Origin: Candidatus Micrarchaeota archaeon
GTDB taxonomy: Archaea; Micrarchaeota; Micrarchaeia; Anstonellales; JAHKLY01
Length of the DNA stretch: 64,000 nt
Assembly (NCBI GenBank): GCA_020854825.1
Contig: JAHKLY010000001.1
Coordinates: forward strand, 32,001 to 96,000
Reading direction: 5' to 3'
Numbering within the stretch: the stretch's first letter is position 1; the number at the start of each line of letters is the position of its first letter. The notes under the pieces were generated by a model. That model saw nothing but the letters and a program-made list of their open reading frames with translations. It did not search any database and was not told the origin of the DNA. Made by a program: the position numbers and the translations under genes. Below are positions 16,613-50,514 of the stretch, one piece after another.

Positions 16613-18614
16613 TTCCCCCTACTCTTTTTGCTTCTTGTAATTTTTTAATATCCTCATCTAAAAGTTTTAATTCTTCTGAGAGTATCCTTCTTTCATCTGA
16701 AGATGCAAAGGTAAACTCTTTTAATAACTCTTCTTTTCTTTTTGTTAAATTTTCTAATTCAGTTTTTTGAATTGCACTTTTTTGATCTTCTTTTTGAACA
16801 GGAAGAATCCTTGTTGTTTCAAAGATTTGCCTATTGTCCTCATTTTTTATTTGCCAAGGATTAACTGGTTCGGATTCTAACTCTCTTTTTGTTTCTTCTG
16901 TTTTTGATTCAGAAACTACTATCTTTTTTGGTGTTTCTTTTTGAGATGTATATATTTCCTCTTTCTTTGATTCTTTTAATACAATTGAAGGTACTATAGG
17001 ACCTAAAATAATTTTTAGATTTTTTCTTTTTGTTTCTTCAACAACTAAAACTTCTGGTTCTTTTCCGGTTAATTTTGAATATTTTTCTCTTTCAAATTCA
17101 AGATCTGCATTTCTACTTTCTAAATCCAATAATATTTTTTCTGCTTCTTTTTCATGTACTTTTGCAAGTTCTATTTTTCCTTGTTTTTTATATTCTGCAC
17201 TAATTGCTAATTCATCTAAATATTCCATAGTAAGTATGCTCACATCTCTTTGAGCTAAAGATATCAAAACAAATAAATTTGCCTCTTCCTTTGTTATTTC
17301 TCCTGCTTTAATAGCTTCTGCAAATGGTTCAGTATTAGGATCAAAAAATGCATATTTTTCAATTCTATTTCCCTTTCTAATTTCTCTTATTTTATATGGG
17401 ACTTCTATTCCGGGGAACATTTCAACTGTTCCTTCATATTCTACTCTTTGATTAAATGAAGGAAATTCACGTGAATCTGATTTAGATAAATCTTTAGAAA
17501 TAGAAGCTGTCCAAACATTCTTTTCTATCTTTCTTTCTAACTCTTCAATTTCCTGCGCAATTTGATCTTCTTCTGGAATAATTGGAGATTTTTCAACTCG
17601 TTGTTGTTCTTCTCTTATAAATTGTTTTTCAGTTTCTTTAATTTCTTTACCAGATTTAAGTTTTAATTCTTCTTTTTCTGCTGTTACCTCACGTTCCTTA
17701 GGAGGTATTGGAGTTGAGTCTAAAATAGGGATTTCAATAATCTTTTCAGCAGTAACATCTACATTATATTTATCTCTAAATTCTAAAATCTTATTAATTT
17801 CTTTTTCTTTATTATTTAGCCATTCTACATAATTTTCATATATATGATATTTTTCTTTTAAATTTTCAATATCCTTTTTAAATTCTTCTAATTTATCACT
17901 AAAAAGAGAACGAACATCCCTGCCTATTGCATCTGTAATTTCTTCTGGAACTGGTAATTTAATTTGACCAAAACCCTCTTCAGAAATAATTGGAGACTTT
18001 TGAATTCTTTCTTTCTCTTCTATTATAAATTCAGATTTTGGAGGTTCTCTAATTGAACGACTTCTCAAAGTAGGAACCATTTGGCTATATTTTTTATCAA
18101 GTATCTCTCTTTCTCTTGGAGTTATATCTAAAGACCTTTCTTCTGCTCTTAATTCTATTTTTCCAATTGGCAATAAATATTCAGCTACATCTTGCCTCTC
18201 TTGCATCCAATTTATACAGTATTTTTTGATGCTATTATTTTCAATTTGATTAACAAATTGTTCTGCTAATGTTCCTTTTTTAGAAGAATCTAAATTATGT
18301 AAATAGCTTCTAATTAAGTTATCTCTTTCTTTAGAATAACCATAATGATAATATGTCAAAGCGATTACTTCTCTCAATTCGGGATTCCCTGCCCTAAATA
18401 TTTCTTTATATTTTTCATTTTTTTCTAAGTTATATGCTCTAAAAACAGCTTCATCAATTTTTGTCAATTGAATACCATACGGAACACCAGAAAAATATGC
18501 TAATTTTGTTCTTAAATCAATTTGTTCTTCTGGAGCATTTCTCCTTTCATACGCATAATAATTCCCTTTAATCGTGTCCATATGTGAAATTGATATATAA
18601 TCTGCCATATTCAA
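16590..18614 (-). CDS. Large acidic orphan protein (674 aa); N-terminal domain shared with 36660-37637
   Basis: Long E/K-rich ORF with an internal repeat (FIIEEKERIQKSPIISEE / FIREEQQRVEKSPIIPEE). Confidence 0.7.
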   Translation of the reverse strand: MNMADYISISHMDTIKGNYYAYERRNAPEEQIDLRTKLAYFSGVPYGIQLTKIDEAVFRAYNLEKNEKYKEIFRAGNPELREVIALTYYHYGYSKERDNLIRSYLHNLDSSKKGTLAEQFVNQIENNSIKKYCINWMQERQDVAEYLLPIGKIELRAEERSLDITPREREILDKKYSQMVPTLRSRSIREPPKSEFIIEEKERIQKSPIISEEGFGQIKLPVPEEITDAIGRDVRSLFSDKLEEFKKDIENLKEKYHIYENYVEWLNNKEKEINKILEFRDKYNVDVTAEKIIEIPILDSTPIPPKEREVTAEKEELKLKSGKEIKETEKQFIREEQQRVEKSPIIPEEDQIAQEIEELERKIEKNVWTASISKDLSKSDSREFPSFNQRVEYEGTVEMFPGIEVPYKIREIRKGNRIEKYAFFDPNTEPFAEAIKAGEITKEEANLFVLISLAQRDVSILTMEYLDELAISAEYKKQGKIELAKVHEKEAEKILLDLESRNADLEFEREKYSKLTGKEPEVLVVEETKRKNLKIILGPIVPSIVLKESKKEEIYTSQKETPKKIVVSESKTEETKRELESEPVNPWQIKNEDNRQIFETTRILPVQKEDQKSAIQKTELENLTKRKEELLKEFTFASSDERRILSEELKLLDEDIKKLQEAKRVGGNESGVQF

Positions 18615-18698
18615 CCCTCTTTTATATATATTTGGTATCTTTTTCTGTTTTTATATCTTTCGCAAGCTTTATTATTGTTTTTACAGGATTAAATATAT

Positions 18699-19709
18699 AT
18701 GAATATACTTATTACTGGTGCTACTGGACACTTAGGAGCTTATTTATTAGAAGAACTTGCAGATACAAATTATAATTTAAGAATACTTCTAAAAAATCCT
18801 GATGAAACCTCTAAATTAGAAAATTATCCCCATATTGAATTATTTTATGGAGATTTAACAGATCCAGAAACATTAGAAGGAGTAACAAAGGAAATACAGG
18901 TAGTTATACATCTAGCAGCAGTTATTGATTATATTGCTCCTGAAAGTACATTATATTCAGTTAATTATGAAGGTACAAAAAATCTAATACGAGAATGTGC
19001 TAAAACAGGAATTAAAAAATTTATATTTATTAGTTCCACCGCAGTTTATGGAAAAAATTTACCTAACTATCCAATAAAAGAAGATTATAGATTAAAACCA
19101 AATAATGCTTATGGAAAATCTAAAATGCTGGCTGAACAAGAGTTATTAAAATTCAAAGATGAGATGGATATTATAATACTTAGATTGTCTATGTTATATG
19201 GTAGAGGATTTAATAAAGGATACTTTTATATTTTAAGATCTATTGAAAATAAAAATATGAAAATTATAGGTGATGGAAAAAATCATATCCCTCTCCTACA
19301 TGCTAAAGATGCCATACAAGCAATAATATTAAGTTTAGAAAATAAAACAAAAAGTGGTTCAATATATAACGTTACAAATAAAAATACAATAACACAAAAC
19401 GAATTATTGCAAATAAGTGCAAAAGAGTTAAACATAGAGCCACCAAAAAATAAAACTCCTATTTTTATACCAAAAATATTAGCAGGTTTGGAAATATTAA
19501 CAAGCTATTTAACAATGAGTGAACCAAAATTATTAAATGAATATATTGATAAAATATCTTCTGACAGACAATTTAGTATATATACGATTGAAATTGAATT
19601 GGGATTTATTCCAAAAATGGACATAAAAAAAGGTATAAAAGAGATGGTTGAATATTATATACAAGAAGAATATAATAAAACGGAGGGAACAAAAAATGAA
19701 GAAAATTGA
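18699..19709 (+). CDS. NAD-dependent epimerase/dehydratase (extended SDR)
   Basis: ILITGATGHLG, VIHLAA, ISSTAVYG, YGKSK (YxxxK). Confidence 0.92.
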   Translation: MNILITGATGHLGAYLLEELADTNYNLRILLKNPDETSKLENYPHIELFYGDLTDPETLEGVTKEIQVVIHLAAVIDYIAPESTLYSVNYEGTKNLIRECAKTGIKKFIFISSTAVYGKNLPNYPIKEDYRLKPNNAYGKSKMLAEQELLKFKDEMDIIILRLSMLYGRGFNKGYFYILRSIENKNMKIIGDGKNHIPLLHAKDAIQAIILSLENKTKSGSIYNVTNKNTITQNELLQISAKELNIEPPKNKTPIFIPKILAGLEILTSYLTMSEPKLLNEYIDKISSDRQFSIYTIEIELGFIPKMDIKKGIKEMVEYYIQEEYNKTEGTKNEEN

Positions 19710-20463
19710 AAAATATATTAAAGAGGAATTAAGTAAAAAAGGAGCCTTATTTTTCGGAGTTATTGACCCTGTTGACTATAAAGACCTAAATTCCTGTATA
19801 ATTACTGCAAAAAAAACTGCAGATGCAGGTGCAGATATTTTATTATTAGGAGGAAGTATAGGTGTACAAGGAGAAATTTTAGATAATGTAACCAAAGGAA
19901 TAAAAGAAAAAACAAACACACCAGTAGTATTATTCCCTGGAAATATAGGAACAGTTACTCCTTATGCAGATGCTATGTACTTTATGTCTTTATTAAATAG
20001 TAGAAATGCTTATTGGATATCACAAGCACAAACTTTAGCAGCACCTATGATTAAACAATATAAAATCGAAACAATACCTGTGGGATACTTAATAGTAGAA
20101 CCAGGCGGAACTGCAGGTTGGGTAGGTGATGTAAATTTAATACCTAGGGCAAGACCAAAAATAGCTGCGGGTTTAGCTATGGCTGCTGAATTATCTGGGT
20201 CTGCAATGGTAATAACAGATACGGGGAGCAATCCTGAAACTGGCCACGTCCCATTAGATATGATACAAATTGTATCTCAAAGTATTGATGTACCTTATAT
20301 AGTAGCAGGAGGAATAAAAACTCCAGAACATGCAAAAAATGTTATAAAAGCAGGAGCAGACATAATACAAGTTGGAACTGGATTAGAAGATTCAAAAAAT
20401 ATTGAAGAATATGTAAAAAAAATGATTAAATCCGTAAGAGAAGAAGGTAAAAAAAGAGTGTGA
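19696..20463 (+). CDS. Geranylgeranylglyceryl phosphate synthase
   Basis: IDP, LLGGS, VVLFPG, FMSLLNSRN, GYLIVEPG, AGGIK, IQVGT; likely start MKKIEK at 19696. Confidence 0.92.
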   Translation: MKKIEKYIKEELSKKGALFFGVIDPVDYKDLNSCIITAKKTADAGADILLLGGSIGVQGEILDNVTKGIKEKTNTPVVLFPGNIGTVTPYADAMYFMSLLNSRNAYWISQAQTLAAPMIKQYKIETIPVGYLIVEPGGTAGWVGDVNLIPRARPKIAAGLAMAAELSGSAMVITDTGSNPETGHVPLDMIQIVSQSIDVPYIVAGGIKTPEHAKNVIKAGADIIQVGTGLEDSKNIEEYVKKMIKSVREEGKKRV

Positions 20464-20467
20464 TTTA

Positions 20468-21685
20468 GTGAAAAAAATATATTTTGATCATGCAGCTACT
20501 ACTCATTTAGATTCAAAAGTATTAGAAAAAATGCTGCCTTATTTAAAAACCAAATACGGAAATGCATCTTCTCTACATAATTATGGACAAGAATCTAAAG
20601 ATGCAATAGAAAAAGCAAGAAAAGAATTAGCAAATATATTAAAGTGTTCATCAGAAGAAATAATTTTTACTTCATGTGGTTCAGAATCTGATTCATTAGC
20701 CATAATTGGTTATGCATTAGCTAATAAATCAAAAGGAAACCACATTATTACATCTAAATTTGAACATCCTGCTGTGTTAGAGGCATGTAAATTCTTAGAA
20801 ACACAGGGTTTTGAAATATCATATATTTCAATAACAAAACAAGGATTAGTTGATATTGAAAAATTAAAAAAATCAATTACAAAAAAAACTATTTTAGTTT
20901 CTATAATGCACGCAAATAATGAAATAGGAACTATTCAACCAATTGAAGAAATTTATAAAATTTGTAAAGATAAAAGCAATGAATATAAAACAAAAATCGT
21001 ATTTCATACAGATGCTGTTCAAACATTTGGAAAAATTGAAATAAATTCTTCTATGGCAGATATGATCTCTATTTCAGCACATAAATTTTACGGCCCAAAA
21101 GGAATTGGTTTGCTATACAAAAAATCAGGAATAAATATTAAACCAATAATACACGGCCATCAAGAAAAGAATTTACGAGGAGGAACATATAATACAGCTT
21201 CAATAGTCGGAATGGCTGAAGCTGCCAAAATAGCTCAAAAAGAAAAAGATGTAATAAATAAAAAATTAAAAAATTTAACTGAAAAATTAACAAATGAAGT
21301 TCTTAAAATAGAAAACACTTGGATAAATGGGATAGGAAAAGGCGCAGGAGAAAATAAACTTCCAGGTTTAGTTAATTTTGGTTTTCTATTAATCGAAGGA
21401 GAATCAATTCTTATGCATTTAGATAACAAAGGGATTATGTGCTCAACAGGATCTGCATGTTCATCAGATTCATTACAAGCATCACATGTTTTACTCGCAC
21501 TTGGATTAAAACCTGAAGAAGCGCATGGTTCATTGCGCATAAGTTTAGGAAAAGAAAATACTGAAGAAGATATTGACTATTTCTTATCAGTACTGCCAGA
21601 AATAGTGGAAAAATTAAGAAATATGTCGCCTTTTAAAAACAAGGCGCAATTAAAAAGTTTCAAAGGCAATTCAACATGTCGTTAA
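20468..21685 (+). CDS. iscS: Cysteine desulfurase (IscS/NifS)
   Basis: YFDHAATT, HANNEIGTIQP, HTDAVQ, SAHKFYGPKG (PLP lysine), STGSACSS (catalytic Cys). Confidence 0.95.
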   Translation: MKKIYFDHAATTHLDSKVLEKMLPYLKTKYGNASSLHNYGQESKDAIEKARKELANILKCSSEEIIFTSCGSESDSLAIIGYALANKSKGNHIITSKFEHPAVLEACKFLETQGFEISYISITKQGLVDIEKLKKSITKKTILVSIMHANNEIGTIQPIEEIYKICKDKSNEYKTKIVFHTDAVQTFGKIEINSSMADMISISAHKFYGPKGIGLLYKKSGINIKPIIHGHQEKNLRGGTYNTASIVGMAEAAKIAQKEKDVINKKLKNLTEKLTNEVLKIENTWINGIGKGAGENKLPGLVNFGFLLIEGESILMHLDNKGIMCSTGSACSSDSLQASHVLLALGLKPEEAHGSLRISLGKENTEEDIDYFLSVLPEIVEKLRNMSPFKNKAQLKSFKGNSTCR

Positions 21686-21713
21686 AACTTAACAATACAA
21701 ACATTAATAAATA

Positions 21714-22544
21714 ATGAGATACACAAGAAATAAAGGTAAAATTATAAAAAAATCAATCATTATGTTGTCAGTTTTGTTAGCGATACTACTATTTCTGTTA
21801 GATTGTACAGAAACAATACACCCCGTACATATAACTAATGACAATCAAACAGATGAACAAACACAACTTAATAATCAGACAAACTCAGTTATTTCCCAAT
21901 CAACAAAAAACTCATTGGAAAAAATTGAAGCTTTTTTAAAACTTGATGAAGGATTGGAATATAAGGCCCAGTATTCCATTTATACAAATAAAACTACTCT
22001 GCTCACAAATAGTACGTTTTATCAAAAAGGAAATAAATATTACTTAAACATTAACCCAATATTTAAATCAGAAGAAGGAATTAATGAAAATTATTCTGGT
22101 GGACATTTATTCCAGTTAATTAATGAAACATATATTTGTGAAGAAAAAGTAAATACTAATCTAACCTGTTATGTCCCTCCCCAACCTATTTTTTATCAAA
22201 CAATATTATTAGTGGGAGATCCAGCATTACTATTGGAAGATGAGATAAACAAAAAAGGGATTGAACGTGTTTTTTCTAAAGATGATAATTATTCCTTTTA
22301 TCAGGAAACTCATGCTGGCATAATGAGTAATTGCTTTCATGCAGATGTAGACCCGGGACAATATGGCTCTAGTAATATGTTTAAATTTTGTTTTGCACCT
22401 AATGGAGTAGTAACCTATTTCGCTCGCAAAAGTATTAATGAAGTACTTTTATCACAGGAATTAATATCTGTTTCTTATAGTGTTTCTGATAATATATTTA
22501 ATTTACCTGTTGAACCTACGGAATATACCCAACCAAATTCCTAA
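21714..22544 (+). CDS. Putative secreted protein or lipoprotein, possibly LolA/EPDR-like fold
   Basis: N-terminal hydrophobic segment ending LLLDC, two Cys pairs, C-terminal VSDNIFNLP; lies between iscS and iscU. Confidence 0.6.
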   Translation: MRYTRNKGKIIKKSIIMLSVLLAILLFLLDCTETIHPVHITNDNQTDEQTQLNNQTNSVISQSTKNSLEKIEAFLKLDEGLEYKAQYSIYTNKTTLLTNSTFYQKGNKYYLNINPIFKSEEGINENYSGGHLFQLINETYICEEKVNTNLTCYVPPQPIFYQTILLVGDPALLLEDEINKKGIERVFSKDDNYSFYQETHAGIMSNCFHADVDPGQYGSSNMFKFCFAPNGVVTYFARKSINEVLLSQELISVSYSVSDNIFNLPVEPTEYTQPNS

Positions 22545-22670
22545 TTTCTTTCTCTTTTCTCAGGTATTTATCCTTAAATTATTTTTAGGAACTATGTTAT
22601 ATCTGAACACTAATATTTTTATAGATATATAACAAAATAATATATCTTTTAAATATTTTAGGAGATTAGA

Positions 22671-23057
22671 ATGGAAAAATACAATAAAAAAGTAATGGAT
22701 CATTTTTTGAATCCGCGCAATATGGGTAAAATGCAAAACCCAACAGTTACTGGTGAAGCAGGAAACGCAGTATGCGGAGACGTTTTATTTTTATATCTAA
22801 AAATAGAAAAGAATGAGGAAGGAAAAGACATAATCAAAGATGTTAAATTTGAAACATTTGGATGTGCAGCAGCAATAGCAACTTCTTCAGCGCTTACTGA
22901 AATAATCAAAGGAAAAACAATTGATGAAGCGCAAAGGGTTTCAAACAAAGATGTTGAAGAATATTTAGGTCAATTACCTTTAATTAAAAAACACTGCTCA
23001 AACTTAGCAGAAGATGCATTAAAAGATGCTTTGAAAAAATTAAAAGACAAAAAATAA
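22671..23057 (+). CDS. iscU: Fe-S scaffold IscU/NifU
   Basis: DHFLNPRNMG, GNAVCGD, FETFGCAAAIA, KKHCSNLA. Confidence 0.95.
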   Translation: MEKYNKKVMDHFLNPRNMGKMQNPTVTGEAGNAVCGDVLFLYLKIEKNEEGKDIIKDVKFETFGCAAAIATSSALTEIIKGKTIDEAQRVSNKDVEEYLGQLPLIKKHCSNLAEDALKDALKKLKDKK

Positions 23058-23059
23058 AA

Positions 23060-23572
23060 TTAAATCTTTTCATAAAATTCTTCTAAAGGTTTTCTCTTTC
23101 TTTCACCTTGTTTAATATCTGGATAACCTATTGGAATTACGAAGGGAATTAAATATTTGTCTGGAATATCTAAAACTTGTTTTATCTTATTTTCATCTAT
23201 CACACCAACATAACATGTTCCTAAACCTAATTCAGTTGCTTTTAATACTAAAAATGTAGATGAAATCGTGCAATCAATAATAGCAAATTTTTTTCCCCTT
23301 TCTTCTGGGTCTGGATATGGTGTTGGATCAACAGCACAAATAAGAATAGAAGGTGCAGTATAAACAAAATCCTGTTTAAATGCTTGTTCTTTTTTTAACT
23401 TATCTTTTAAATCGTTTGAATTAATAATGTAAATTTTTTGTGATTGAGTATTTCTTGCTGTTGGTGCTAATCTAGCAACATTTATTAATTTTTTAATTAA
23501 ATCATCGGGTATTTCATCTGATTTGAATTTTCTTACACTATATCTCGCATCTATAACTTTATCTAAATTCAT
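23060..23572 (-). CDS. Nitroreductase family protein
   Basis: RYSVRKF, APTARNTQ, ATELGLGTCYVG, IGYP. Confidence 0.92.
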   Translation of the reverse strand: MNLDKVIDARYSVRKFKSDEIPDDLIKKLINVARLAPTARNTQSQKIYIINSNDLKDKLKKEQAFKQDFVYTAPSILICAVDPTPYPDPEERGKKFAIIDCTISSTFLVLKATELGLGTCYVGVIDENKIKQVLDIPDKYLIPFVIPIGYPDIKQGERKRKPLEEFYEKI

Positions 23573-23659
23573 AATATCAACTCCTACATATAGTTATAAA
23601 ACTTAATATTTATATATCAGATTAACAAATTTTAAAATGTTTATTAGATAGGTGATTAA

Positions 23660-23842
23660 ATGGTAAGTGTAGATAAAGAAAAATGTATAGGATGCGGCGC
23701 ATGTGTAGCAGTATGTTCAGAAGTATTTGAATTAACATCAGAAGGAAAAGCAAAAGTAAAAGATAGTTATGCTGGTGGAAATGAAGAATGTATTGATCAA
23801 GCGGTTAGTATCTGTCCGGTTCAAGCAATTAAAAAGTTTTAA
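23660..23842 (+). CDS. Ferredoxin
   Basis: CIGCGAC...C and CPVQAI. Confidence 0.92.
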   Translation: MVSVDKEKCIGCGACVAVCSEVFELTSEGKAKVKDSYAGGNEECIDQAVSICPVQAIKKF

Positions 23843-23843
23843 T

Positions 23844-25199
23844 TTATCCGAGAATCTCATCAGCTATTTGATCTGGTTTGAAAGGAATAAGATCTTCGTA
23901 TTCTTGTCCTACACCAACATAAACAACTGGTATATTTGTTGCGCGAGGTATGGAAATTGCATTTCCTCCTTTTGCATCACAATCTAATTTTGTTAAAATA
24001 ACACCCTGTATTTTTACAGCTTGGTTGAATTCTTTTATTTGATCTATAACAGAATGCCCTGCTATACTCTCACCAATATAAATAGTTAAATCAGGTTCAA
24101 TAATTCGTCCTAATTTCCTTAATTGATCTACTAAATTTTTGTTTGTTTCTTGTCTGCCTGCAGAATCAATTAAAACCGCATCTAAATTATTGGACTTTGC
24201 ATGATTAACAGCATCATATGCAATAGAAGTTGGGTCTGCACCATATTTGCCTTTTATTACTTTTTTATTTAATCTTTCACCATGAATGCCTATCTGCTCA
24301 ATGGCTGCTGCTCTAAAAGTATCTGATGCTGATAAAACAGAACTTAAATTATTATTTTCAAGAAGTTTTGATACTTTTGCAATTGTTGTTGTTTTTCCTG
24401 CACCATTGGGCCCTATAAATAAAATCTTGTACGGTTTTTTACCGTATTTTACTTTTTCTACTAAATCAAATCTATCTTCATGATCCATTATGTTAATTAA
24501 AGCTTGTTTTATTGATTCTCTAATTTGTTCTTCTAAGTCAGATTTATCTAATTCCTTATCCACTAAAGAAGTTCTTATCTCTTCTTTCAACGCACTTGCT
24601 ACATCTAAATTAACATCACTTTCTAATAATGAAAGTTCTAATTCCTCTAATAAAGAATTGATATCTTTTTCTTTTATTTTAATTTTTCTTGAAATTAATC
24701 CTCTTAATCTACTTTCTAAACTTAGTTTAATCTTTTTATCTTGTTTAGGTTTAATTTCTTCTATTGGTTTTTCAATCTTTGGTTCTTGTTTAGGTTTTTC
24801 AATTTCTATTTCTTCGTGTTTTTCAATTACTTGTTTAATTTCTACTGGTTTTTCTTCTTCGTTTTCTTCAATTTTTTCTTTTTCTTTTGGTTCATCTTTT
24901 AATTCTTTATTTTCAATTTTTTCCTTTTCTTCTGTTGCTTCTTTCTCCTCAGTTTTTTTCTTTACTTCTTTCTTTTCTTTTGGTTTTTCATCTTCTTGTG
25001 TTTTAGTTGTTTCTTGTTTTTTTGGTTCTTGCTGTTTTTCTGGTGCATTGTCTAGTGTTTCCTCCTCTTTTGAGTCTTCATTTATCTCTTCAATCTCTTC
25101 TTTAATCTCTTCCTTCTGTTTTTCTTCTTCTTTTTTTGTTAATTTATTAACAAACCCACTTAATTTATCTTTAAGAAGACCAAACATTAATACCACCAA
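23844..25199 (-). CDS. ftsY: SRP receptor FtsY
   Basis: Acidic N-terminal region; GPNGAGKTTT, DTFRAAA, DSAGR, TKLDCDAKGG. Confidence 0.96.
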   Translation of the reverse strand: MVVLMFGLLKDKLSGFVNKLTKKEEEKQKEEIKEEIEEINEDSKEEETLDNAPEKQQEPKKQETTKTQEDEKPKEKKEVKKKTEEKEATEEKEKIENKELKDEPKEKEKIEENEEEKPVEIKQVIEKHEEIEIEKPKQEPKIEKPIEEIKPKQDKKIKLSLESRLRGLISRKIKIKEKDINSLLEELELSLLESDVNLDVASALKEEIRTSLVDKELDKSDLEEQIRESIKQALINIMDHEDRFDLVEKVKYGKKPYKILFIGPNGAGKTTTIAKVSKLLENNNLSSVLSASDTFRAAAIEQIGIHGERLNKKVIKGKYGADPTSIAYDAVNHAKSNNLDAVLIDSAGRQETNKNLVDQLRKLGRIIEPDLTIYIGESIAGHSVIDQIKEFNQAVKIQGVILTKLDCDAKGGNAISIPRATNIPVVYVGVGQEYEDLIPFKPDQIADEILG

Positions 25200-25598: not shown

Positions 25599-25600
25599 AA

Positions 25601-25786
25601 TTACACCTTTTCTACTTTATCAATTTTTATTTGGGTTCTTTTTAATTTTTGATGTTTTGAACCAAAAAATTTGTATATTTTTTCTGTTGCATCAAATTCT
25701 CCTTTTGCTTCAATCCCTTTTTTAAAGGTTCTACTTTCTCTACCCAACTTTATTGTACCTATAATATTATATTTCATAAATTTCAC
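25601..25786 (-). CDS. rpl18a: 50S ribosomal protein L18Ae/LX (eL20)
   Basis: EKIY..FGSKH.KLKR.QI.I motif; synteny. Confidence 0.9.
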   Translation of the reverse strand: MKFMKYNIIGTIKLGRESRTFKKGIEAKGEFDATEKIYKFFGSKHQKLKRTQIKIDKVEKV

Positions 25787-25787
25787 C

Positions 25788-28466: not shown

Positions 28467-28564
28467 ATAAATAATTTTTGTACTAATATTGTTATTGCAC
28501 ATCTTTAAAAAGATTTTTACTGCTTAGAAACTCTTTTAAAAGGGATTAATTAAATAATAATTGT

Positions 28565-29893
28565 ATGGTAGACTTAGGAAAAGGACTTAGAAACGCATTA
28601 GCTAAAATAACAGGCGCATCAATAGTTGATGAAAAAGCAGTTAAAGAACTAGTAAAAGAACTACAAAGAGTCCTTATTTCAAATGATGTAAATGTAAAAC
28701 TTGTTTTTGAATTAACAAAAGAAATTGAAAAAAAAGCATTGGATGCAGAACTTTTAAAAGGACTTTCAATGCGTGAACATGTTGTAAAAGTAGTTTATGA
28801 AGAATTAGCAAATTTATTAGGTAAAGATTACAAACCAGAATTAAAAAAACAAAGAATAATGGTACAAGGATTATTTGGTAGTGGAAAAACCACTTCAGTC
28901 GGTAAAATGGCATTATTTTATAAGAAAAAAGGTTTATCAACTGCGTTAATTGCATGTGATGTAGAAAGACCTGCAGCTTATGAACAATTAGAACAATTAT
29001 CTAAACAAGTTAATTGCGCATTTTATGGAATTAAAGGAGAAACAGATGTTAAAAAAATAATTAAATATGCGTTAGAAAAAACAAAAGAAGATATTTTAAT
29101 TTTAGACTCAGCAGGAAGAAGTGCATTTGATGAAAGACTAACTGAAGAACTTAAAAAAATAGTTGATGCATATAATCCAGATAAAAAATTCTTAGTTATA
29201 TCCGCAGATATAGGTCAAGTTGCTGGAAAACAAGCTGAACAATTTAATAATTCAGTAGGAATAGACGGAGTAATAATAACAAAAATGGATGGTAGTGCAA
29301 AAGGAGGCGGTGCATTAAGTGCAGTCTCAGTTTCAAATTCTAATATAGCATTTATAGGATATGGAGAAAAAATGGAAGATTTAGAACCTTTTGATTCTAA
29401 AAAATTCGTTGGCAGACTTTTAGGTTTCCCAGATTTAGAAACATTAATGGAAAAAGCAAAAACAATTGCTGAAGAACAACAAATGGATCCTGAAAAATTA
29501 CTGGAACAGGAATTAACTTTGAAAACATTTTATGAACAATTAAAAGCAGCAAAAAAAATGGGTCCCTTAGGAAAAGTATTAGGTATGATGGGTGCACCTG
29601 ATGTACCAAAAGAATTTGTTGAACAAAGTGAAGGTAAAATGAAAAAATATGAATCTGTTATTAATTCCTTAACAGAAGAAGAAAAAAACGACTATAATTT
29701 ATTGAAAAAAAGTAGTACAAGAATACAAAGAATATCAAAAGGAGCGGGTGTTTCTGTTGAAGATGTTAAAACTCTGTTAAGAGAATTTGAAAAAGCAAAA
29801 AAAATGATGAACCTGTTTAAGAAAAATCGTGGTATGCGCGGAAAAATAGAAAAAATGATGAAATCAGGCAATTTCAAACTACCTGGAATGTAA
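28565..29893 (+). CDS. srp54: Signal recognition particle protein SRP54
   Basis: GLFGSGKTTS, DVERPAA, DSAGR, TKMDGSAKGGGALS, Met-rich M domain. Confidence 0.96.
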   Translation: MVDLGKGLRNALAKITGASIVDEKAVKELVKELQRVLISNDVNVKLVFELTKEIEKKALDAELLKGLSMREHVVKVVYEELANLLGKDYKPELKKQRIMVQGLFGSGKTTSVGKMALFYKKKGLSTALIACDVERPAAYEQLEQLSKQVNCAFYGIKGETDVKKIIKYALEKTKEDILILDSAGRSAFDERLTEELKKIVDAYNPDKKFLVISADIGQVAGKQAEQFNNSVGIDGVIITKMDGSAKGGGALSAVSVSNSNIAFIGYGEKMEDLEPFDSKKFVGRLLGFPDLETLMEKAKTIAEEQQMDPEKLLEQELTLKTFYEQLKAAKKMGPLGKVLGMMGAPDVPKEFVEQSEGKMKKYESVINSLTEEEKNDYNLLKKSSTRIQRISKGAGVSVEDVKTLLREFEKAKKMMNLFKKNRGMRGKIEKMMKSGNFKLPGM

Positions 29894-29917
29894 AATAAAA
29901 AAAATTAGGAGAAGAAA

Positions 29918-30649
29918 TTATCTTTTTCTTCTTGCGCTTTCTTTTTCAATTAATTCAGATAAAGTTTCTTTTCTTATAAATCTTCTTCCACCAATTTTCT
30001 CATGTGGAATTCTTCCTCTATCCAATCTTCTTTCAAATGCATTTCTTTTAATTTTTAACCCATTTTTAGATAATTCCTTTATTGAACCTGCAACATCATA
30101 ATAATTATCTGCTACATGTGTTAAGCTATCTATTGCATCTCTTGGAATCCATCTTTGAGTTCCTATTTTTACTGAAGGAATTGATCTTTTTTCTACTCTG
30201 CCTATAAATGCTCTAAAGTTAATATTTTCGTGTTTTTTTAAAGTAGTATATGCTTGTCTTACTGTATAAAATTTGTTGTATAACTGAACCCAGTCTTGTA
30301 AAACTAATGAAGGGATGTATCTTTTTCTGCCAACTTTTACAGAATATAAACTTTTTCTTTCAATTCTGCCACCAAATGCCCTAAATGAAATTTCAACACC
30401 ACTTTTTTTAACTTTATCAAATGCTTCTTCTAAAGTGTATAATCCTAATCCTTTTAATTTTCTTTTTTCTGCTCTTCTTTGTTTTTGTAAATCTTGTGCA
30501 GTTTTAACAACTGTTGCTACATTTAAATATAATTCTTTTTCTCTATCTTTTCTTTCTTTTTTTATTTTTGCAGGTTTGATTCGCTTAAGTTTTTCAACTT
30601 CTAAATCTTTTTTCATTTTTTTTAATTCAATTACTTTTTTACGTGGCAT
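29918..30649 (-). CDS. Protein with three tandem excisionase/MerR-like (HTH_17) DNA-binding domains
   Basis: Three repeats: YTLEEA..SVKVGRKRYIP, YTVRQA..SVKIGTQRWIP, YDVAGS..HEKIGGRRFIR; start MPRKK after GGGGGTGA. Confidence 0.75.
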   Translation of the reverse strand: MPRKKVIELKKMKKDLEVEKLKRIKPAKIKKERKDREKELYLNVATVVKTAQDLQKQRRAEKRKLKGLGLYTLEEAFDKVKKSGVEISFRAFGGRIERKSLYSVKVGRKRYIPSLVLQDWVQLYNKFYTVRQAYTTLKKHENINFRAFIGRVEKRSIPSVKIGTQRWIPRDAIDSLTHVADNYYDVAGSIKELSKNGLKIKRNAFERRLDRGRIPHEKIGGRRFIRKETLSELIEKESARRKR

Positions 30650-30781
30650 AAATTTCACCCCTAATACACAATATTATTGTATCACACACTCTTTTTAATA
30701 CTTTGTATTTCTTCAGTATACTTTATATATCTTTCTGCTAACTATTCTAATATGATAGACTTATTCTATACAAATTTAACA

Positions 30782-31612
30782 ATGAACTATGAAATCCTAA
30801 GAATATTATTTGCAGTAATTGGAACATCTATATCTGCATATTTTGATATTTTTAATAAAAAAAACATACCTGATTTAGTACTTTATATCTTTCTTGTATT
30901 ATCTTTAATAATTGTTTTTATTGATTTCAATCTAACATTAATAATATATTCAATTGGATGTGCGCTTATTGTTGGTATAATAGGTTATTTATTTTATAAA
31001 GCAGGACAAATAGGGGGAGCTGATGTTTTTATATTGTGCTCTTTAGCATTATTGTTGCCCGTACAACCAAAACTATTTGGGAATACTAGTAATATCAATT
31101 TACCCTTCATTTTTTCAATAATTTCAGTAGCAGGATTTGTATTTATCATATATGTACTGTTTAAGTACACGCCTATGGTTCTTAAAAGAAAAGAAAAAAT
31201 TGAATTAAAAAGAATAATTTATTCTTTACCGCTTATTTGTATTTTTTTAATATTTATATTGCTGTCAAAGAAGATAGATTTACCTGCAATATATTTAATT
31301 TTGATTGGTTTTTTAATTTGTGTTTCTATATATTTTTCAATATTTAAAGAACGTTTTATGAAAACATTAATAGAAAAAATACCTTTAAATAAAATAGAAA
31401 ACGAAGATGTTATTGCAATTGAGTATATGAATAAGAAAATTGTTGAAAAATACAATATACCTAGGGTAGTCTCTAGTTCTGATTTAAAAAGATTAAAAAA
31501 CGCAAAAATTTCAAAATATCCTGTTTATACTAAATTGCCTATGTTTGTCCCATTTATATTAATTGGATTGTTATTTTCATTATATTTTGGAAGCCTTTTA
31601 TTCTTATTTTAA
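30782..31612 (+). CDS. Prepilin/preflagellin peptidase (A24 family, PibD/FlaK-like)
   Basis: AYFD..K.IPD (first Asp), GQIGGAD (GxGD-like), C-terminal LPMFVPFILIG. Confidence 0.85.
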   Translation: MNYEILRILFAVIGTSISAYFDIFNKKNIPDLVLYIFLVLSLIIVFIDFNLTLIIYSIGCALIVGIIGYLFYKAGQIGGADVFILCSLALLLPVQPKLFGNTSNINLPFIFSIISVAGFVFIIYVLFKYTPMVLKRKEKIELKRIIYSLPLICIFLIFILLSKKIDLPAIYLILIGFLICVSIYFSIFKERFMKTLIEKIPLNKIENEDVIAIEYMNKKIVEKYNIPRVVSSSDLKRLKNAKISKYPVYTKLPMFVPFILIGLLFSLYFGSLLFLF

Positions 31613-32244
31613 ATAAATAAAAACCCTAATATCAAACCTATAATTGCACAAATAATATTGGTTGTCATTTTTGTTCCTATGCCTTTTTCTTCAAAAACCC
31701 CAAATATGGAATCAACAACAGATCCCGAAAATCCAATCCCCCCTATTAAAAGAACACTCCATAAGTTATATTCTTCAAAAAACAATAATGCAGACATACC
31801 TATCAATAGTGCTCCTACTAAAGACATCCATGTTCCAAATAAACTAATTGCTCCGCTTGTTCCTCGTTTTGTTTTCTTAAAATCTCTAAGATCTATTGGA
31901 TCCTCTCCTAAAATTCCTAATTCAGATGCAAATTTATCAGACATTACTGCTGCTACTGCACCTATAAATGCTCCGGGAGAAATTAAAGCTCCAATTAAAG
32001 GAATAAATCCATTTGCAAAAACATTTTCCCATCCTCTTTCATGTTCATAAACACCCATGGATTTTTTATCATAATACCTGTATTTAGTCACTAACACAGC
32101 TAATACAAAAAATATTAACATAATAACTAAATAAAAAATATCAATGATCGCTAGCACCATACCCAATATTAATGCTAACACAATCGCTTTTGAATCTAAT
32201 AATAAGGTTTTTCTAACATTTGAACCTTTTTCTTTTCTTGTCAT
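31609..32244 (-). CDS. DUF92 integral membrane protein
   Basis: RGWENVFANG, SDKFASELG, GTSGAISLFG, DSIFG, TN. Confidence 0.9.
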   Translation of the reverse strand: MTRKEKGSNVRKTLLLDSKAIVLALILGMVLAIIDIFYLVIMLIFFVLAVLVTKYRYYDKKSMGVYEHERGWENVFANGFIPLIGALISPGAFIGAVAAVMSDKFASELGILGEDPIDLRDFKKTKRGTSGAISLFGTWMSLVGALLIGMSALLFFEEYNLWSVLLIGGIGFSGSVVDSIFGVFEEKGIGTKMTTNIICAIIGLILGFLFI

Positions 32245-32248
32245 TTAA

Positions 32249-33208
32249 TCACTTTCTTATAAGTTTATTTCCGTTAAATTCAAATATGTTTCCTAAAAAC
32301 TTTTCAATCACCAGTATATTGCTTTTTGCATGTTCTGATAATTCAGATATATTTAATTCACTTCTTTTATTACATAATGCCAAATAAATTAATATCTGAT
32401 CTACCAAATATTTATCTAAACTACTATTAAATCCTTTGAATTCATTAATTGTGTCTTTTGCTATCTTTTCTGCAGGAAACCCTATTTTTCCAAGTCCTGT
32501 TGAACCTTTATATCTGGTATATACAGTTATGCAATTACCAGTAGAAGATGAATCTTTTATTATTTTAATATTTTTTGTGTATCCTTTTAATACTTCTATT
32601 TCTCTTTTTGCTATATGATCTGGTAAATTACACAATAAAATTTCTGTTTTAATTTCTTCTTTCTTATCTTCAAATCTTAATGATTTTATATATTTAACAG
32701 GCCAAATATATATTTCAACCTCTCCTCCTCCTTTTGGATAAAAACCATAAGATAAACAATTAATCTTTGCCTTAATCCCTATTTCTTCTAAAACTGGTAA
32801 AAATACTTTTTGTATATATGTAATAGTTGGTGCAAGCGGAACATGTGTACCTCCCTTTATGTTTATTTTTAATTCAGAAGTTATAGAAAAAGCAAGAGGC
32901 AATATAGTTTGGATAACCAACCCAATTGCTCCGGCTGTTTGAATGTCAAAAGAGTAATTTTTTGATATTATATTTCCGGGAATAAATATTATCTCCTGAC
33001 TCCCAAAATATGCTCCTTCTACATCTGCATTACAAATTTCTTTTAATGAATTAATACACATTAAATGCTGATTCTTTAATCCTGGTTTTGGTCTATTTTT
33101 ACGTATGTTAAAAATTCTTATGGGTTTGTTTAATATTACACTTAAAGATAAAGAAGTTCTTAGTATTTGACCTCCTCCTTCTTGTCCATCGATTTCAATA
33201 AAATTCAT
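32249..33208 (-). CDS. rtcA: RNA 3'-terminal phosphate cyclase
   Basis: IDGQEGGGQILRTSL, IRKNRPKPGL..QH, GGTHV, GFYPKGGG, D.Y..DQ, SEH; likely ATG at 33208. Confidence 0.93.
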   Translation of the reverse strand: MNFIEIDGQEGGGQILRTSLSLSVILNKPIRIFNIRKNRPKPGLKNQHLMCINSLKEICNADVEGAYFGSQEIIFIPGNIISKNYSFDIQTAGAIGLVIQTILPLAFSITSELKINIKGGTHVPLAPTITYIQKVFLPVLEEIGIKAKINCLSYGFYPKGGGEVEIYIWPVKYIKSLRFEDKKEEIKTEILLCNLPDHIAKREIEVLKGYTKNIKIIKDSSSTGNCITVYTRYKGSTGLGKIGFPAEKIAKDTINEFKGFNSSLDKYLVDQILIYLALCNKRSELNISELSEHAKSNILVIEKFLGNIFEFNGNKLIRK

Positions 33209-33224
33209 ACATTTCCCCCATATA

Positions 33225-33301
33225 TAGAAATAGGCCAGCACGTGCTTACACGCGCTGGCAAGGCGACCAGTTTCCCACCAATTCTTAGAAGACGGAAGAG
33301 C
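33225..33301 (-). ncRNA. Candidate structured leader or small RNA upstream of rtcA
   Basis: GC-rich island in AT-rich DNA; 11-bp hairpin GCCAGCGCGTG-TAAG-CACGTGCTGGC; TTTAAATA TATA-like box ~25 bp upstream on the minus strand. Confidence 0.45.
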
Positions 33302-33368
33302 AAATTTTATTACAATAGCATAGTATTTAAACCTTTTGGTTGCAATAATCTTCTACAATGGTGATACT

Positions 33369-33917
33369 ATGGAAGGAAGTGAAGATAAACAAAGGATCCA
33401 AGAAGTGGAAAATGAAAAAAACAAGTTAATTGAGGAGGCTAAAAAAATCAATAAACGGCTTCATTACAAAAGTTTAGAACTTAAGGCATTACAACCGTTT
33501 ATTGTGGAGAATAAAAATATAAGGGCAGGTCCGTATAGAAAAGAACTAAGGATGCTTGAATTTAAAGTTTCTACACAAGCATACACTCCAAAAATAGAAA
33601 GAGAACTTCTAAAAAAAATTAAAGAAGTAAAAAAACATTTGGATGAAACAATGAGAGTAGAACAAGCTAGAAAAAAGGCTATGTTAGTTGAAAAAGATAT
33701 ATTTGAAATAAACAAGAAAAAAGAAGAAATAGATAAAAAATTAAGTGAAATAAGGGAAGAAATGAATTTATTAAGAGAAAAAATCAAAAAAAGGAGAGAA
33801 GAAAGACAACAACAGCACCAACAAAAACCAAAAATAAAAAATGAGTATACTTCACATAAAAAATCAGATAAGTACTTAAGTTTAGAAGAAATCGTTGAAA
33901 TACATGGAAAAGAATAA
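33369..33917 (+). CDS. Archaeal coiled-coil protein (COG1340-like fragment)
   Basis: LEFKVSTQAYTPKIERELLKKI motif; heptad-rich; ATG 33369 after GGTGA. Confidence 0.7.
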   Translation: MEGSEDKQRIQEVENEKNKLIEEAKKINKRLHYKSLELKALQPFIVENKNIRAGPYRKELRMLEFKVSTQAYTPKIERELLKKIKEVKKHLDETMRVEQARKKAMLVEKDIFEINKKKEEIDKKLSEIREEMNLLREKIKKRREERQQQHQQKPKIKNEYTSHKKSDKYLSLEEIVEIHGKE

Positions 33918-33938
33918 ATAATCTGTTTTCCTAATATT

Positions 33939-36311
33939 TTGATGAAAATATCTGGCTTTTTACTAAACATAGACTATAGTTCAGAAGATATAACTCTTTG
34001 GATTAAAACAAAAACTGGAACTGTAAGGATTACAGATACATATGATCCCTATTTTTACTTAGACGCACCACAAAATGTTATCAAAGATATTGAACTATTT
34101 AAAATTCTTTACAATGGAGAACCTATACAAATTAAGAATTATGAAAAAATAAGATACTGGGTAAAAGGAAAAGAAAAAGAATTATTTAAAATATACTGTT
34201 ATTCTCCTTCTCATATCCCATTAATTAAAAAAGCACTAGAAGATTTTCAATGTTATGAATATAAAATTAGATTTATACAAAGATACTTAATTGATAAACA
34301 ATTATGGCCACTTAAATCATATGAATTTATATATTCTAATAAAATAGATAAAATAGTTCCAATAGACGAAGAAGAAAATTTTAATATATTAGCATTTGAT
34401 ATTGAAACATATAATCCTTCGGGTATTCCAAATGAAAAAAAAGATCCTATAATCATGATAAGTTACGCAGATCAGAAAGAAGCAAAGGTTTTAACATTTA
34501 AAAAGATAAATAGAGAATTTGTAATAACATACACTAATGAAGAAAAAATGCTCGAAAGTTTTTGTAACATTTTAGAAGAAAAAGATATTGATTTAATTTT
34601 AGGTTATAATATAAATCAATTTGATCTTCCATATTTAAGAAAAAGAGCAAGAGTTTTAGGATTGGATTTAACTTTAGGAAAAGAAAATCTTGAGATTTTA
34701 GTTAAAAAAAATGGATCAAATACAAAAATAGAAATACCTGGGAGGATTCCTGTTGATTTATATCCAGTAGCTAGATTTTTGAGCAATATTGGGGCAGTTA
34801 GAATTACAAGATTCACTTTAAAACGGGTTTATCATGAACTTATTGGTGAAAAAAGTGAAACAAAGGAACTTGTAAAAAAAGAAGATATTTGGAAAATGTG
34901 GAATAATGAAAGAGAAAGAGACATACTTGCAGATTATTCATTAGGAGATTCAAAAGCAGTAATAGAAATATCCAAACATTTATTACCTGTTGAAATAGAA
35001 CTAGCCAAAGTATGTGGTTTAACTTTGGAAGAAACTGCTTCTTCAGCAACAGGCAGACTTGTTGAAAGTTTATTAATGCGTAAAGCACATGAACGAAATG
35101 AAATAATTCCAGAAATACCAAGACACCATGAAGTATTAGAAAGACAAAGAAATCCTATAAAGGCTGCATACGTTAAAATTCCAGAACCTGGAATTTATAT
35201 TAATATTGCAGTTTTTGATTTTAGAAGTTTGTATCCTTCTATTATTATTTCACATAATATAGATCCATTTACTTTGAATTGTGATTGTTGTGAAAATACA
35301 CATGTTTCTCCATTAGGGCATAAATTTTGTAAAAAAAGAAAAGGGATAATCCCTGAAACTCTAGAAGAATTAATAACTAAAAGAATTAAATTAAAAAAAG
35401 AAATGAAAAAATTAACAAAAGATTCAGAAGAATACAATAAAATATTTGCTAGACAATGGGCATTAAAGATTCTTGCAAATAGTTTTTACGGTCAGACAGT
35501 ATATCCAAGAGCAAGATGGTATTCAAGAGAATGTGGCTCTAGTATCACTTCATGGGGGCGACATTATATTTTATCAACAATTGAAAAAGCAGAAAAACTA
35601 GGATTTGACGTTTTATATTCAGATACAGATTCAATACTTCTAATCCTTAAAAATAAAACAAAAAAAGAGGCACTAGAATTTATGGAATCAATAAACAAAG
35701 AACTACCTGGAAATATGGAATTAGAATTAGAAGACTTTTATCCGAGAGGAGTATTTGTAAGTAAAAGAACTTCAGCAACAGGTGCAAAAAAGAAATATGC
35801 ATTGATAGATGAAAAAGGGATGATAAAAATAAGAGGTTTTGAATTAGTAAGAAGAGACTGGTCCAAAATAGCAAAAAAAACCCAAATGGATATATTAAAA
35901 GCAATATTACAAGATGGAGATAAAGAAAAAGCAGTCAAAATTGTTAAACAAACTATTCAAGAATTAAAAGAGGGTAAAATACCTTTAGAAGATTTAGTTA
36001 TTTACACCCAATTACAAAAAAATATTCATTCTTATGCGATTAAATCACCAGAAGTAAGCGCTGCTAAAAAAGCAATAAAAAGAGGTAAAAAAATAGAAAG
36101 TGGTGCATTAGTTGGGTATATAATAACAAAAAACGGCAGTTCAATATCAGATAAAGCTGAATTATTAGAATTTGCTGAAGATTATGATCCTGAGTATTAT
36201 ATTAATAAACAAATTATGCCTGCTGTTTTAAAGATATTAAAAGAATTGGGATACGAAGAAGACGAATTAAAAGCTAAAGGCAAACAAATAGGGTTAGATA
36301 GTTTTTTTTAA
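33939..36311 (+). CDS. polB: Family B DNA polymerase
   Basis: Exo I FDIET, Exo II GYN..FDLPYL, DFRSLYPSIII, KILANSFYG, YSDTDS, KKKYA, RRDWS, C-terminal PIP box QIGLDSFF; no intein. Confidence 0.97.
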   Translation: MMKISGFLLNIDYSSEDITLWIKTKTGTVRITDTYDPYFYLDAPQNVIKDIELFKILYNGEPIQIKNYEKIRYWVKGKEKELFKIYCYSPSHIPLIKKALEDFQCYEYKIRFIQRYLIDKQLWPLKSYEFIYSNKIDKIVPIDEEENFNILAFDIETYNPSGIPNEKKDPIIMISYADQKEAKVLTFKKINREFVITYTNEEKMLESFCNILEEKDIDLILGYNINQFDLPYLRKRARVLGLDLTLGKENLEILVKKNGSNTKIEIPGRIPVDLYPVARFLSNIGAVRITRFTLKRVYHELIGEKSETKELVKKEDIWKMWNNERERDILADYSLGDSKAVIEISKHLLPVEIELAKVCGLTLEETASSATGRLVESLLMRKAHERNEIIPEIPRHHEVLERQRNPIKAAYVKIPEPGIYINIAVFDFRSLYPSIIISHNIDPFTLNCDCCENTHVSPLGHKFCKKRKGIIPETLEELITKRIKLKKEMKKLTKDSEEYNKIFARQWALKILANSFYGQTVYPRARWYSRECGSSITSWGRHYILSTIEKAEKLGFDVLYSDTDSILLILKNKTKKEALEFMESINKELPGNMELELEDFYPRGVFVSKRTSATGAKKKYALIDEKGMIKIRGFELVRRDWSKIAKKTQMDILKAILQDGDKEKAVKIVKQTIQELKEGKIPLEDLVIYTQLQKNIHSYAIKSPEVSAAKKAIKRGKKIESGALVGYIITKNGSSISDKAELLEFAEDYDPEYYINKQIMPAVLKILKELGYEEDELKAKGKQIGLDSFF

Positions 36312-36327
36312 ATGTTATTAAATATTA

Positions 36328-37637
36328 TTAACTCTTTTTTTCTCTTTCTTGTTTTTTAGCTTGTGCTATTTGCATATCTATAAGATATGAAAACGTATAT
36401 TGTGCATCTTGTTCATTTAAATAAAGCGACTTTTGAGCATATTGATCATCTCCTGAATAAATAAAAACTGCTGTTCCCCCTCGTATTTTATCAATAATAT
36501 ATTTAGATTCTCTATCATCAATTGAAGGACAGCCATGACTACAGCCTAACCTATACTTCCCGTCTGAATAATTCATTGGTTCTCTAGAATATTTTGCTCC
36601 ATGCATTACTATTCCGCGCCTTTGCATATTATTATTAACTTCTTCTAATCCAATCAAAATTAATGAATATCCATTTTTTTCACTATTATATGTCCAACCA
36701 GAGTTACTGCAAGTCCCATACTGGACTTATTATCATTAGGTATGTTTGAGAACTCTGCCATTTCTGATTTTTCAGTCTTTTTTGCCCCATGTGAAACATA
36801 TAATACATTCTCTATCTTCTTATTCTCCATATTTAAAACAAATAATCTTTTTTCATAAGAAGGCAAAGAATAATCAATTATAGTTAAAAAATCTGATCTT
36901 GTTATCTCTCCTAGTTTTAATCCATTTAAATATGCAACAATTGCTTGTTCAAAACATTCAAAACTTAATCCTTGTTCCTGTGCATTGAACTTCTCATACT
37001 CTTGTCTTATCCAATAAGTAACTGACTTCTTTCCTTTTTCTAAAAAATCTTCTATTGTATCTACATCCACAATGTGCGCTGCACTTTCTAAAGTATCTGT
37101 AGATACAAAAGTCCTATCTGTATCTGTAACAGAGGGTTGGAATATTTCTGTTTCAATTTGTGACGAGATATCAAAATTCTCTTTTGGCAAGTATCCTTCT
37201 AAAAACTTTGGGACCAATTTTATCCTCTGTTCAGTCAATTGAGTATATCTATTTTCATTATCTTTTAACATCTTCTCAATTTTTTCTTTTGCCCAAACAG
37301 TACTTATACTAGAAATAAGAACTTCAATTGTTTCTTCTTGTTTAAAAGATTCTATCGCAGTATTAACAATGTTTTTTCCGTTTGCATATCCTTCTAAATA
37401 CCAAACATATGCAATTACTTCTAATAATTGAGTTCTTTTTGGTTCTCCCATATTTTCTAAATCGAGATTTGATTTTATAATGCTATCTTTAGCTCTCCAA
37501 AATGCCTCATGTAATAAATCTCTTTTTCCAATAGGTATATTCAAATACTTTCCAAAATTATTCATCAATTCTAATTCGTGTTTAGTTAAAGTGGCTGTTA
37601 CTTTACTTTCCCAATAAGTTTGTTTAATATGCCCCAT
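36328..37637 (-). pseudogene. Frameshifted fusion of an orphan N-terminal domain and a YkuD_2-type murein L,D-transpeptidase domain (ORFs 36660-37637 and 36328-36657)
   Basis: IIDYSLPSYEKRLFV..VSHG..FSN.P...KSSMG continues in another frame as GWTYNSEKNGYSLILIGLE..NNN...RGIVMHGA..RLGCSHGCPSI. Removing 2 nt at ~36700-36703 restores one ORF. Confidence 0.85.
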
Positions 37638-50511: not shown

Positions 50512-50514
50512 TGA

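Follow-up and report, generated by a model that had tools for sequence, protein, structure and literature searches.

A six-helix N-terminal domain common to two Micrarchaeota proteins with different C-terminal bodies

A stretch of 64,000 nucleotides (nt) from the genome of a Candidatus Micrarchaeota archaeon (GenBank assembly GCA_020854825.1, contig JAHKLY010000001.1; C3:32001-96000, hereafter the window) encodes two proteins, P0001 and P0002, which lie far apart, begin alike and end differently. Are their N-terminal domains (hereafter heads) homologous, and what could one domain do in front of such different bodies? The original prediction, made from the sequence alone, suggested that the head may be a targeting or chaperone-binding module of a polymorphic effector family, possibly exported by an apparatus encoded at 45–62 kb of the window. 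Both open reading frames (ORFs) were found where it had placed them, on the minus strand (Table 1). The source genome (G000) amounts to 828 kb in seven contigs, with 97.6% completeness and ~28% GC, and the window contains the archaeal markers PcrB (geranylgeranylglyceryl phosphate synthase), family B DNA polymerase (PolB), Rad50, RNA cyclase and SRP54. Among the other genomes, G001 is a genus-mate; f1, f5, f7 and so on denote families, and g7 a genus.

Homology, fold and distribution of the head

Judged from sequence comparisons, the homology of the two heads is real and covers their whole ~125–135 residues, and P0001 and P0002 are paralogous in the first ~130 residues only. BLASTP aligned residues 12–98 of P0001 with residues 1–89 of P0002 at 22% identity over 90 columns (E 0.022). 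The significance expected against shuffled controls was obtained in part: the Smith-Waterman score of 57 was equalled by only 1/3000 and 3/3000 shuffles, but among the 482 ORFs of at least 200 amino acids (aa) in this genome two unrelated N-termini scored higher against P0001 than P0002 did, and therefore the pair by itself is not conclusive. A second BLASTP/phmmer match, between the P0001 head and residues 214–283 of P0002 (the start of its YkuD_2 domain), was rejected as spurious and did not recur in the profile comparisons.

The profile comparisons carry the case. A hidden Markov model (HMM) built from foreign sequences only (L015, L017, L018, L020 and L024, with nothing from this genome or from the P0001 clade) ranked P0002 (E 4.8e-26) and P0001 (E 3.6e-7, residues 51–113) as the top two of the 2026 ORFs of the genome, the third-ranked ORF following at E 0.034. 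Since the foreign sequences had been picked by their similarity to the queries, the alignment of the two subfamilies without intermediates is the cleaner test; aligning the profile of the P0001 subfamily (6 sequences) with that of the transpeptidase subfamily (5 sequences) by hhalign gave a probability of 93.6% and an E value of 2.1e-7 over 125 columns. When each N-terminus was searched separately against 61 related genomes, both searches converged, at matching positions, on the same ORFs in G015 (C42) and G007 (C44), and each of the two proteins has an orthologue in G001. The foreign HMM and hhalign thus agree on a common helical domain of ~120–130 aa ahead of different C-termini, as had been proposed. 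A chance or compositional likeness of two proteins from an AT-rich genome, for which the pairwise E value and the two better-scoring unrelated N-termini would speak, is highly improbable, contradicted as it already is by the profile results and also by the residue conservation and the convergence of both queries on the same ORFs.

The AlphaFold2 (AF2) model of P0002 residues 1–140, made from 14 sequences, has six helices and no strands (predicted local distance difference test, pLDDT, 90.7; predicted template modelling score, pTM, 0.84). The model of full-length P0001, made from its own subfamily alignment only, reproduces the same order of helices in residues 27–145 at pLDDT 84–91. In the P0002 head, E44, R48 and G83 are invariant, and W9 and W79-Y80 are conserved. 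The non-redundant copies, 28 in number, all have the Glu of (L)xEAxxRA (28/28), and 27/28 have the Arg; the Gly of WYxxGY was present in 27/27 and the N-proximal Trp (W9) in 23/25. These positions are summarised in the signature W-x(~35)-[LIV]-x-E-[AGS]-x-x-R-[ATS]-x(~30)-[WYF]-[YF]-x-x-G-[YWF].

Judged by the libraries searched, the head is a six-helix domain with a new family and a new signature; the literature was searched for the context of the enzyme. Neither N-terminus matched a Pfam family at E<=1, and for 14 head copies searched at E<=10 no family recurred; LXG, PE, PPE, WXG100 and PG_binding_1 (PF01471) were not among the matches listed. PHROGs and NCBIfam returned no match for the domain, the sequence search of the PDB gave nothing under E 0.35, Foldseek against the PDB gave nothing under E 1 for either model, and ESM Atlas gave no usable match. 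A word-based search with P0002 residues 1–200 returned P0002 itself only, and two single-domain queries found no relatives in viral contigs, a search sensitive to close relatives only.

A HMMER search of 1.84 billion representative proteins revealed 21 proteins with the head at E<=1e-3. All 21 have one copy beginning within the first 32 residues, and two (P0004 and P0017) carry a second copy in tandem. The head occurs in no more than three families, all belonging to one Micrarchaeota order: it was found in 6/176 genomes of the order, namely in f1 (G000 and the one relative searched, G001), f5 (1/1) and f7 (3/3), and was not found in f6 (42 genomes), f9 (99) or f10 (19). An even sample of the phylum gave 5/401 genomes, the same ones as in the order. 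Head-bearing genomes have 2 to 4 matches each, and this genome has exactly two.

Several observations accompany the census. The N-termini of the f7 YkuD_2 proteins (G007:C49 and G021:C6), a different helical region of ~230 aa, were considered as remote heads and rejected (hhalign probability 0.12%). One family gene is split by a contig break, with its first 70 codons (L044) at the start of G007:C20 and the rest (L020) at the end of G007:C44, the text overlapping. The ORF L042 (G005:C14, 278-3517(-)) encodes 1079 aa with two tandem heads followed by a beta-rich, Gly/Ser/Asn-rich tail of ~800 residues; no family match was found for this tail, nor a homologue among the ORFs of the source genome.

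C-terminal bodies and the split transpeptidase gene

The expectation of different C-termini behind a common head was borne out, these being YkuD_2 domains, Glu/Lys-rich helical rods and small beta-rich repeat arrays. YkuD_2 is the only recognisable body and occurs in P0002, L015, L017/P0007, P0010 and P0016; the remaining bodies had no Pfam match above the cut-off and fall by BLASTP into stable classes, one of which is the tandem-headed 1079-aa protein of L042.

The P0001-type body consists of a Glu/Lys-rich helical rod and one conserved sheet-plus-hairpin module. An acidic, repetitive and helical C-terminus had been proposed for P0001, and our analysis agrees: it contains 17.9% Glu and 12.4% Lys (net charge -20) and an internal repeat in two copies, and long helices are predicted by AF2. 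The database form of the protein (P0005) starts at an ATG two codons later and has 672 aa. In the AF2 model the conserved module comprises strands at 389–421 and helices at 440–514 (pLDDT 75–85); it is 38% identical to its counterpart in the G001 orthologue over 188 aa (BLASTP), and no specific fold match was found by Foldseek or VIA-align. The hairpins of P0001 at residues ~437–516 and 605–672 (window 16590-17300(-)) resemble the Snf7/ESCRT-III core and CdvA at Z 8.4–9.0; because designed hairpins score equally, this likeness was treated as generic. The VIA-align list for the full P0001 model was so crowded by Snf7, CdvA and designed hairpins that it is uninformative on the head.

The bodies of genus g7, read from the sequence, are of three types with small repeated beta-rich units and Pro/Thr/Lys-rich linkers. 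The proteins L018, L020, L024 and L041 (G007, G015 and G021) were observed to have 2–4 such units separated by Pro/Thr/Glu/Lys-rich linkers, without a family match, and the pattern of the unit is roughly F-x-[FY]-x-x-G-x-L-x-I-...-Y-x-L-[TS]-x-E-D.

The predicted absence of a Sec signal was upheld by a Kyte-Doolittle scan, a crude test and not SignalP, which showed no N-terminal hydrophobic segment in either protein. The same scan found no hydrophobic N-terminus or membrane segment in the family proteins covered, 14 window/locus ORFs and P0004–P0023.

P0002 had been described as continuing into an L,D-transpeptidase. The YkuD_2 match confirms the beginning of this domain, but only positions 2–90 of 169 lie in P0002, and the catalytic half is found in the next ORF, P0003. 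The latter carries MHGA...GCSHGC, the His/Cys active-site stretch; the active-site motif of YkuD is HG ... S-x-G-C. The gene TRANSPEPTIDASE (P0002 plus P0003) is divided between two frames, and YkuD_2 is not whole in either. Downstream of a run of seven A (A7), the -1 frame reads ...KKNGYSLILIGLEE..., which runs collinear with P0010, an intact homologue of 433 aa, and the domain is unbroken in G001, G005, P0010 and P0016. The same A7 is present in contigs from four sequencing runs with 0 differences and 0 gaps, two of these runs not being flagged as possible sources of the genome; an isolated assembly error therefore does not account for it, within the limits that contigs cannot rule out minority variants and that several of the four runs may share one sampling campaign. 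Read from the sequence, the A7 run is out of phase with the canonical X XXY YYZ heptamer. The transpeptidase member of this genome would be either a recent pseudogene or a gene made whole by -1 ribosomal or transcriptional slippage, and its annotation is corrected here to that of a split gene. In comparison with known YkuD_2 (PF13645) proteins, P0002 and P0003 match both halves of the profile above the cut-off and retain the His/Cys stretch, whereas the gene is split by a frameshift, lacks an export signal, has a new head in front and belongs to an archaeon. Archaea are not known to make peptidoglycan.

Table 1. Coordinates within the window of the two genes, their parts and neighbouring features
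Feature	Position	Strand	Remarks
P0001 gene	16590..18614	(-)	674 aa from a TTG start; body Glu/Lys-rich, helical, partly disordered
P0001 N-terminal helical domain, residues 12-148	18171..18581	(-)	HMM envelope; signature DEAvfRA and YYhyGY
P0001-clade conserved C-terminal module	17067..17444	(-)	Three-strand sheet, then long helical hairpin
P0002 ORF	36660..37637	(-)	325 aa; N-terminal domain, linker and first half of YkuD_2; premature stop
P0002 N-terminal helical domain, residues 1-138	37224..37637	(-)	HMM envelope, AF2 model, alignment
YkuD_2 (PF13645), positions 2-90 of 169	36702..36977	(-)	62.6 bits against a cut-off of 27
A7 run, -1 frame change	36674..36680	(-)	Sequence; alignment with P0010
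P0003 ORF, 109 aa	36328..36657	(-)	YkuD_2 positions 104-169, 53.8 bits against a cut-off of 27
844-aa ORF	14078..16612	(-)	Shares 23 nt with the end of P0001; no Pfam match
Membrane cluster	45389-61769	(+)	Six paralogous multi-pass proteins of 281-664 aa, then giants of 1640 and 1396 aa

Neighbouring genes and the 45–62 kb cluster

The genes of the family lie in housekeeping surroundings. In G000 as in G001, the transpeptidase member is flanked by PolB and an M24 peptidase, and the P0001 clade has an epimerase and PcrB beside it, a synteny likewise kept between the two genomes; in G021 the neighbours include SMC, eIF1A, eIF2-beta, CTP synthase and a glutamyl/glutaminyl-tRNA synthetase. Genes for mobile elements, immunity-like functions or secretion were not found around the family members. 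The 844-aa ORF that overlaps P0001 is probably co-transcribed with it and has 36% identity to an ORF of 850 aa that occupies the corresponding position in G001. Its occurrence in only 2/176 genomes of the order rules it out as a family-wide partner, and its sole NCBIfam row, MobC_subf, was dismissed, its 15.3 bits falling far short of the cut-off of 200. Two further arrangements were observed. In G007 and G021, two family members stand ~4.5 kb apart on either side of the same housekeeping block. In the window, two Fic/DOC genes (38628-39518(-), 296 aa, and 40541-41458(+), 305 aa) lie less than 2 kb apart, beyond the transpeptidase and M24 genes.

The cluster at 45–62 kb had been suggested as an export apparatus for the head-bearing proteins, with which it would co-occur. 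Most of its paralogues have a signal-like hydrophobic N-terminus and both giant proteins have hydrophobic N-termini; no Pfam match above the cut-off and no ATPase were found in it. A profile of the paralogues matched 175/176 genomes of the order, typically about nine times per genome. The cluster is a core envelope system of the order and is unrelated in distribution to the head, which is present in 6/176 genomes, so that co-occurrence carries no information and export by this route finds no backing. The search for secretion machines covered three families: the genome, 97.6% complete, yielded neither VirB4 nor a phage sheath, and for FtsK/SpoIIIE only a sub-threshold P-loop match (20.8 bits against a cut-off of 24).

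The reading as a polymorphic effector family was not supported either. Of the features of polymorphic toxins, a common N-terminal domain with variable C-termini is present; recognisable toxin domains, an adjacent immunity gene and a linked secretion system were not found around the family members. Across genera and families the C-terminal classes stay the same, and the genes keep their places in a conserved housekeeping synteny. Nothing in our analysis shows the head to be a targeting or secretion tag.

Possible function of the head

We tentatively propose that the head is a lineage-specific protein-docking or self-association handle, with a probability of about 0.35. It would self-associate or dock onto one common partner, so that the different bodies would gather at one site within the cell or on its surface. 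In its favor are the extreme N-terminal position in all 21 proteins, the near-complete conservation of the signature residues, the confident all-helical models without a match to an enzyme family or known fold, and the narrow distribution. Of the head itself, the conserved faces rich in Ala/Gly (EAxxRA versus WYxxG) would probably form a helix–helix core, and the invariant Glu–Arg pair together with the aromatic residues may constitute a conserved contact patch. The tandem duplication of the head could be seen in the same light, dimerising domains being often duplicated in this way during evolution. Several points weigh against this proposal. No co-varying partner gene was found, the sole conserved neighbour (the 844-aa ORF) being genus-restricted, and the family genes have housekeeping neighbours only, without a conserved operon partner. 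The conserved residues of the head could be purely structural, or the invariant Glu could have a catalytic or ligand-binding role, as the lysozyme-like folds in ~20 of the 50 top VIA-align rows (Z<=6.2) may hint. In addition, we know of no substrate for an enzyme of the L,D-transpeptidase fold inside an archaeal cell, and purely cytoplasmic docking would therefore leave the transpeptidase member unexplained.

It is rather unlikely that the proteins are ordinary cytoplasmic paralogues with a lineage-specific structural or regulatory head, the transpeptidase-fold gene being a decaying relic of horizontal transfer. The missing signal peptides and membrane segments, the housekeeping neighbourhoods and a frameshift carried by the contigs of four runs speak for this reading, whereas transpeptidase members with the Cys stretch are intact in G001, G005, P0010 and P0016, in two families, and the strict N-terminal position and invariant residues of the head across very different proteins argue for one function.

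We give little credence to the head as an unconventional export tag. In this reading an exporter that needs no signal peptide, or a bridge between cells, would recognise the head, much as type VII secretion recognises LXG or PE/PPE domains, and the transpeptidase-fold enzyme and the rod-like proteins would thereby reach the surface or enter a neighbouring cell. In its favor, the head stands at the extreme N-terminus in 21/21 proteins, no member has an N-terminal hydrophobic segment, and several linkers are Pro/Lys/Thr-rich and resemble surface stalks. According to our reading of the sequences, other YkuD_2 proteins of f6 (L050, L051 and L053 in G075, G080 and G031) have a hydrophobic, lipobox-like N-terminus at this place, and L045 (G175) has a PG_binding_1-like one in place of the head. 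Against such a tag stand the lack of a candidate machine among the three families searched, the distribution of the 45–62 kb cluster and its lack of an ATPase, the absence of secretion genes beside any member, and the stable C-termini, with no immunity-like genes seen. A known signal peptide is also present in only 67/210 archaeal peptidoglycan hydrolases, according to Strock et al. (2025, PMC12352652), which would favor a tag of this kind in general, yet on the same figures a missing signal is common in such enzymes and not special to the proteins studied here. The proteins of that study are likewise peptidoglycan-type enzymes of archaea, mostly without a recognised signal peptide, but they combine a binding domain with a hydrolase, and the head is not one of their binding domains; the words "YkuD" and "transpeptidase" are absent from its main text. 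Studies of DPANN archaea describe peptidoglycan-degrading genes in Pacearchaeota and Woesearchaeota and speculate on bacterial partners or prey.

The likeness to type VII substrates (LXG, PE/PPE and WXG100-like proteins) deserves a separate comparison, as a functional analogy and not as a search result. Those substrates have a helical N-terminal domain of 100–200 aa without a Sec signal, as the head family does, and also occur as several lineage-restricted paralogues per genome with unrelated bodies, including enzymes and low-complexity rods. In contrast, the head family is archaeal, shows no sequence or fold match to them, has no FtsK/SpoIIIE-type ATPase over the cut-off, and bears C-termini that form stable orthologous classes and not swapped cassettes, without immunity genes. 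That the head is the recognition handle of a signal-peptide-independent export or cell-to-cell route of Micrarchaeota, and so an archaeal counterpart of LXG or PE/PPE, has a slightly smaller chance than an export tag in the general sense.

As improbable as the export tag is a glycan-binding or lysozyme-like head, which would bind a glycan such as a bacterial cell wall or, with E44 as the acid, cut it; the P0002 type would then be a wall enzyme of two modules, and the remaining members would be rods that bind the wall. PG_binding_1 precedes YkuD in many bacterial YkuD proteins, and the head sits where these and, by our reading, the G175 protein have that domain. Both combinations resemble the P0002 type in placing a small helical non-catalytic domain before an L,D-transpeptidase; the head differs in having no similarity to PG_binding_1 and in preceding non-enzymatic proteins as well. 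The invariant Glu, the conserved Trp and Tyr residues and the VIA-align rows also favor a glycan-related role. Against 48,161 chains, the ~20 lysozyme-superfamily rows among the top 50 comprised glycoside hydrolase family 46 (GH46), GH24, P22 and T4 lysozymes, pesticin, VgrG3 and SagA, led by the GH46 chitosanase 4olt (Z 6.2, root-mean-square deviation 3.6, 105 residues aligned) and GH24 8b2s (Z 6.2), with P22 lysozyme 2anv at Z 5.4 (103/146 aligned). The best of these values, Z 6.2, is under the stated noise level for helical models, and the second model, that of P0001, gave helical hairpins instead; the libraries gave neither a Foldseek match under E 1 nor a recurring Pfam family. Furthermore, in T4, P22 and GH24 lysozymes a beta-hairpin follows the catalytic Glu, whereas the head model is all-helical and has none. 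What the head has in common with the lysozyme superfamily (GH24, T4/P22, GH46) is a weak helical-core likeness (Z 5–6.2) and one invariant Glu, without a sequence signal.

Overall, our analysis delimits a domain family by its signature, and adds a confidently modelled fold and a full census. DPANN archaea rely on contact with other cells, and most of the proteins at their surface or involved in contact have no annotation. The head ties an enzyme that in bacteria acts outside the cell to several rod-like orphan proteins, all of them without export signals. Should it prove to be a docking or an export module, it would offer a first entry to the assembly or delivery of such proteins in these archaea; otherwise it simply joins the lineage-specific domains without a known function.

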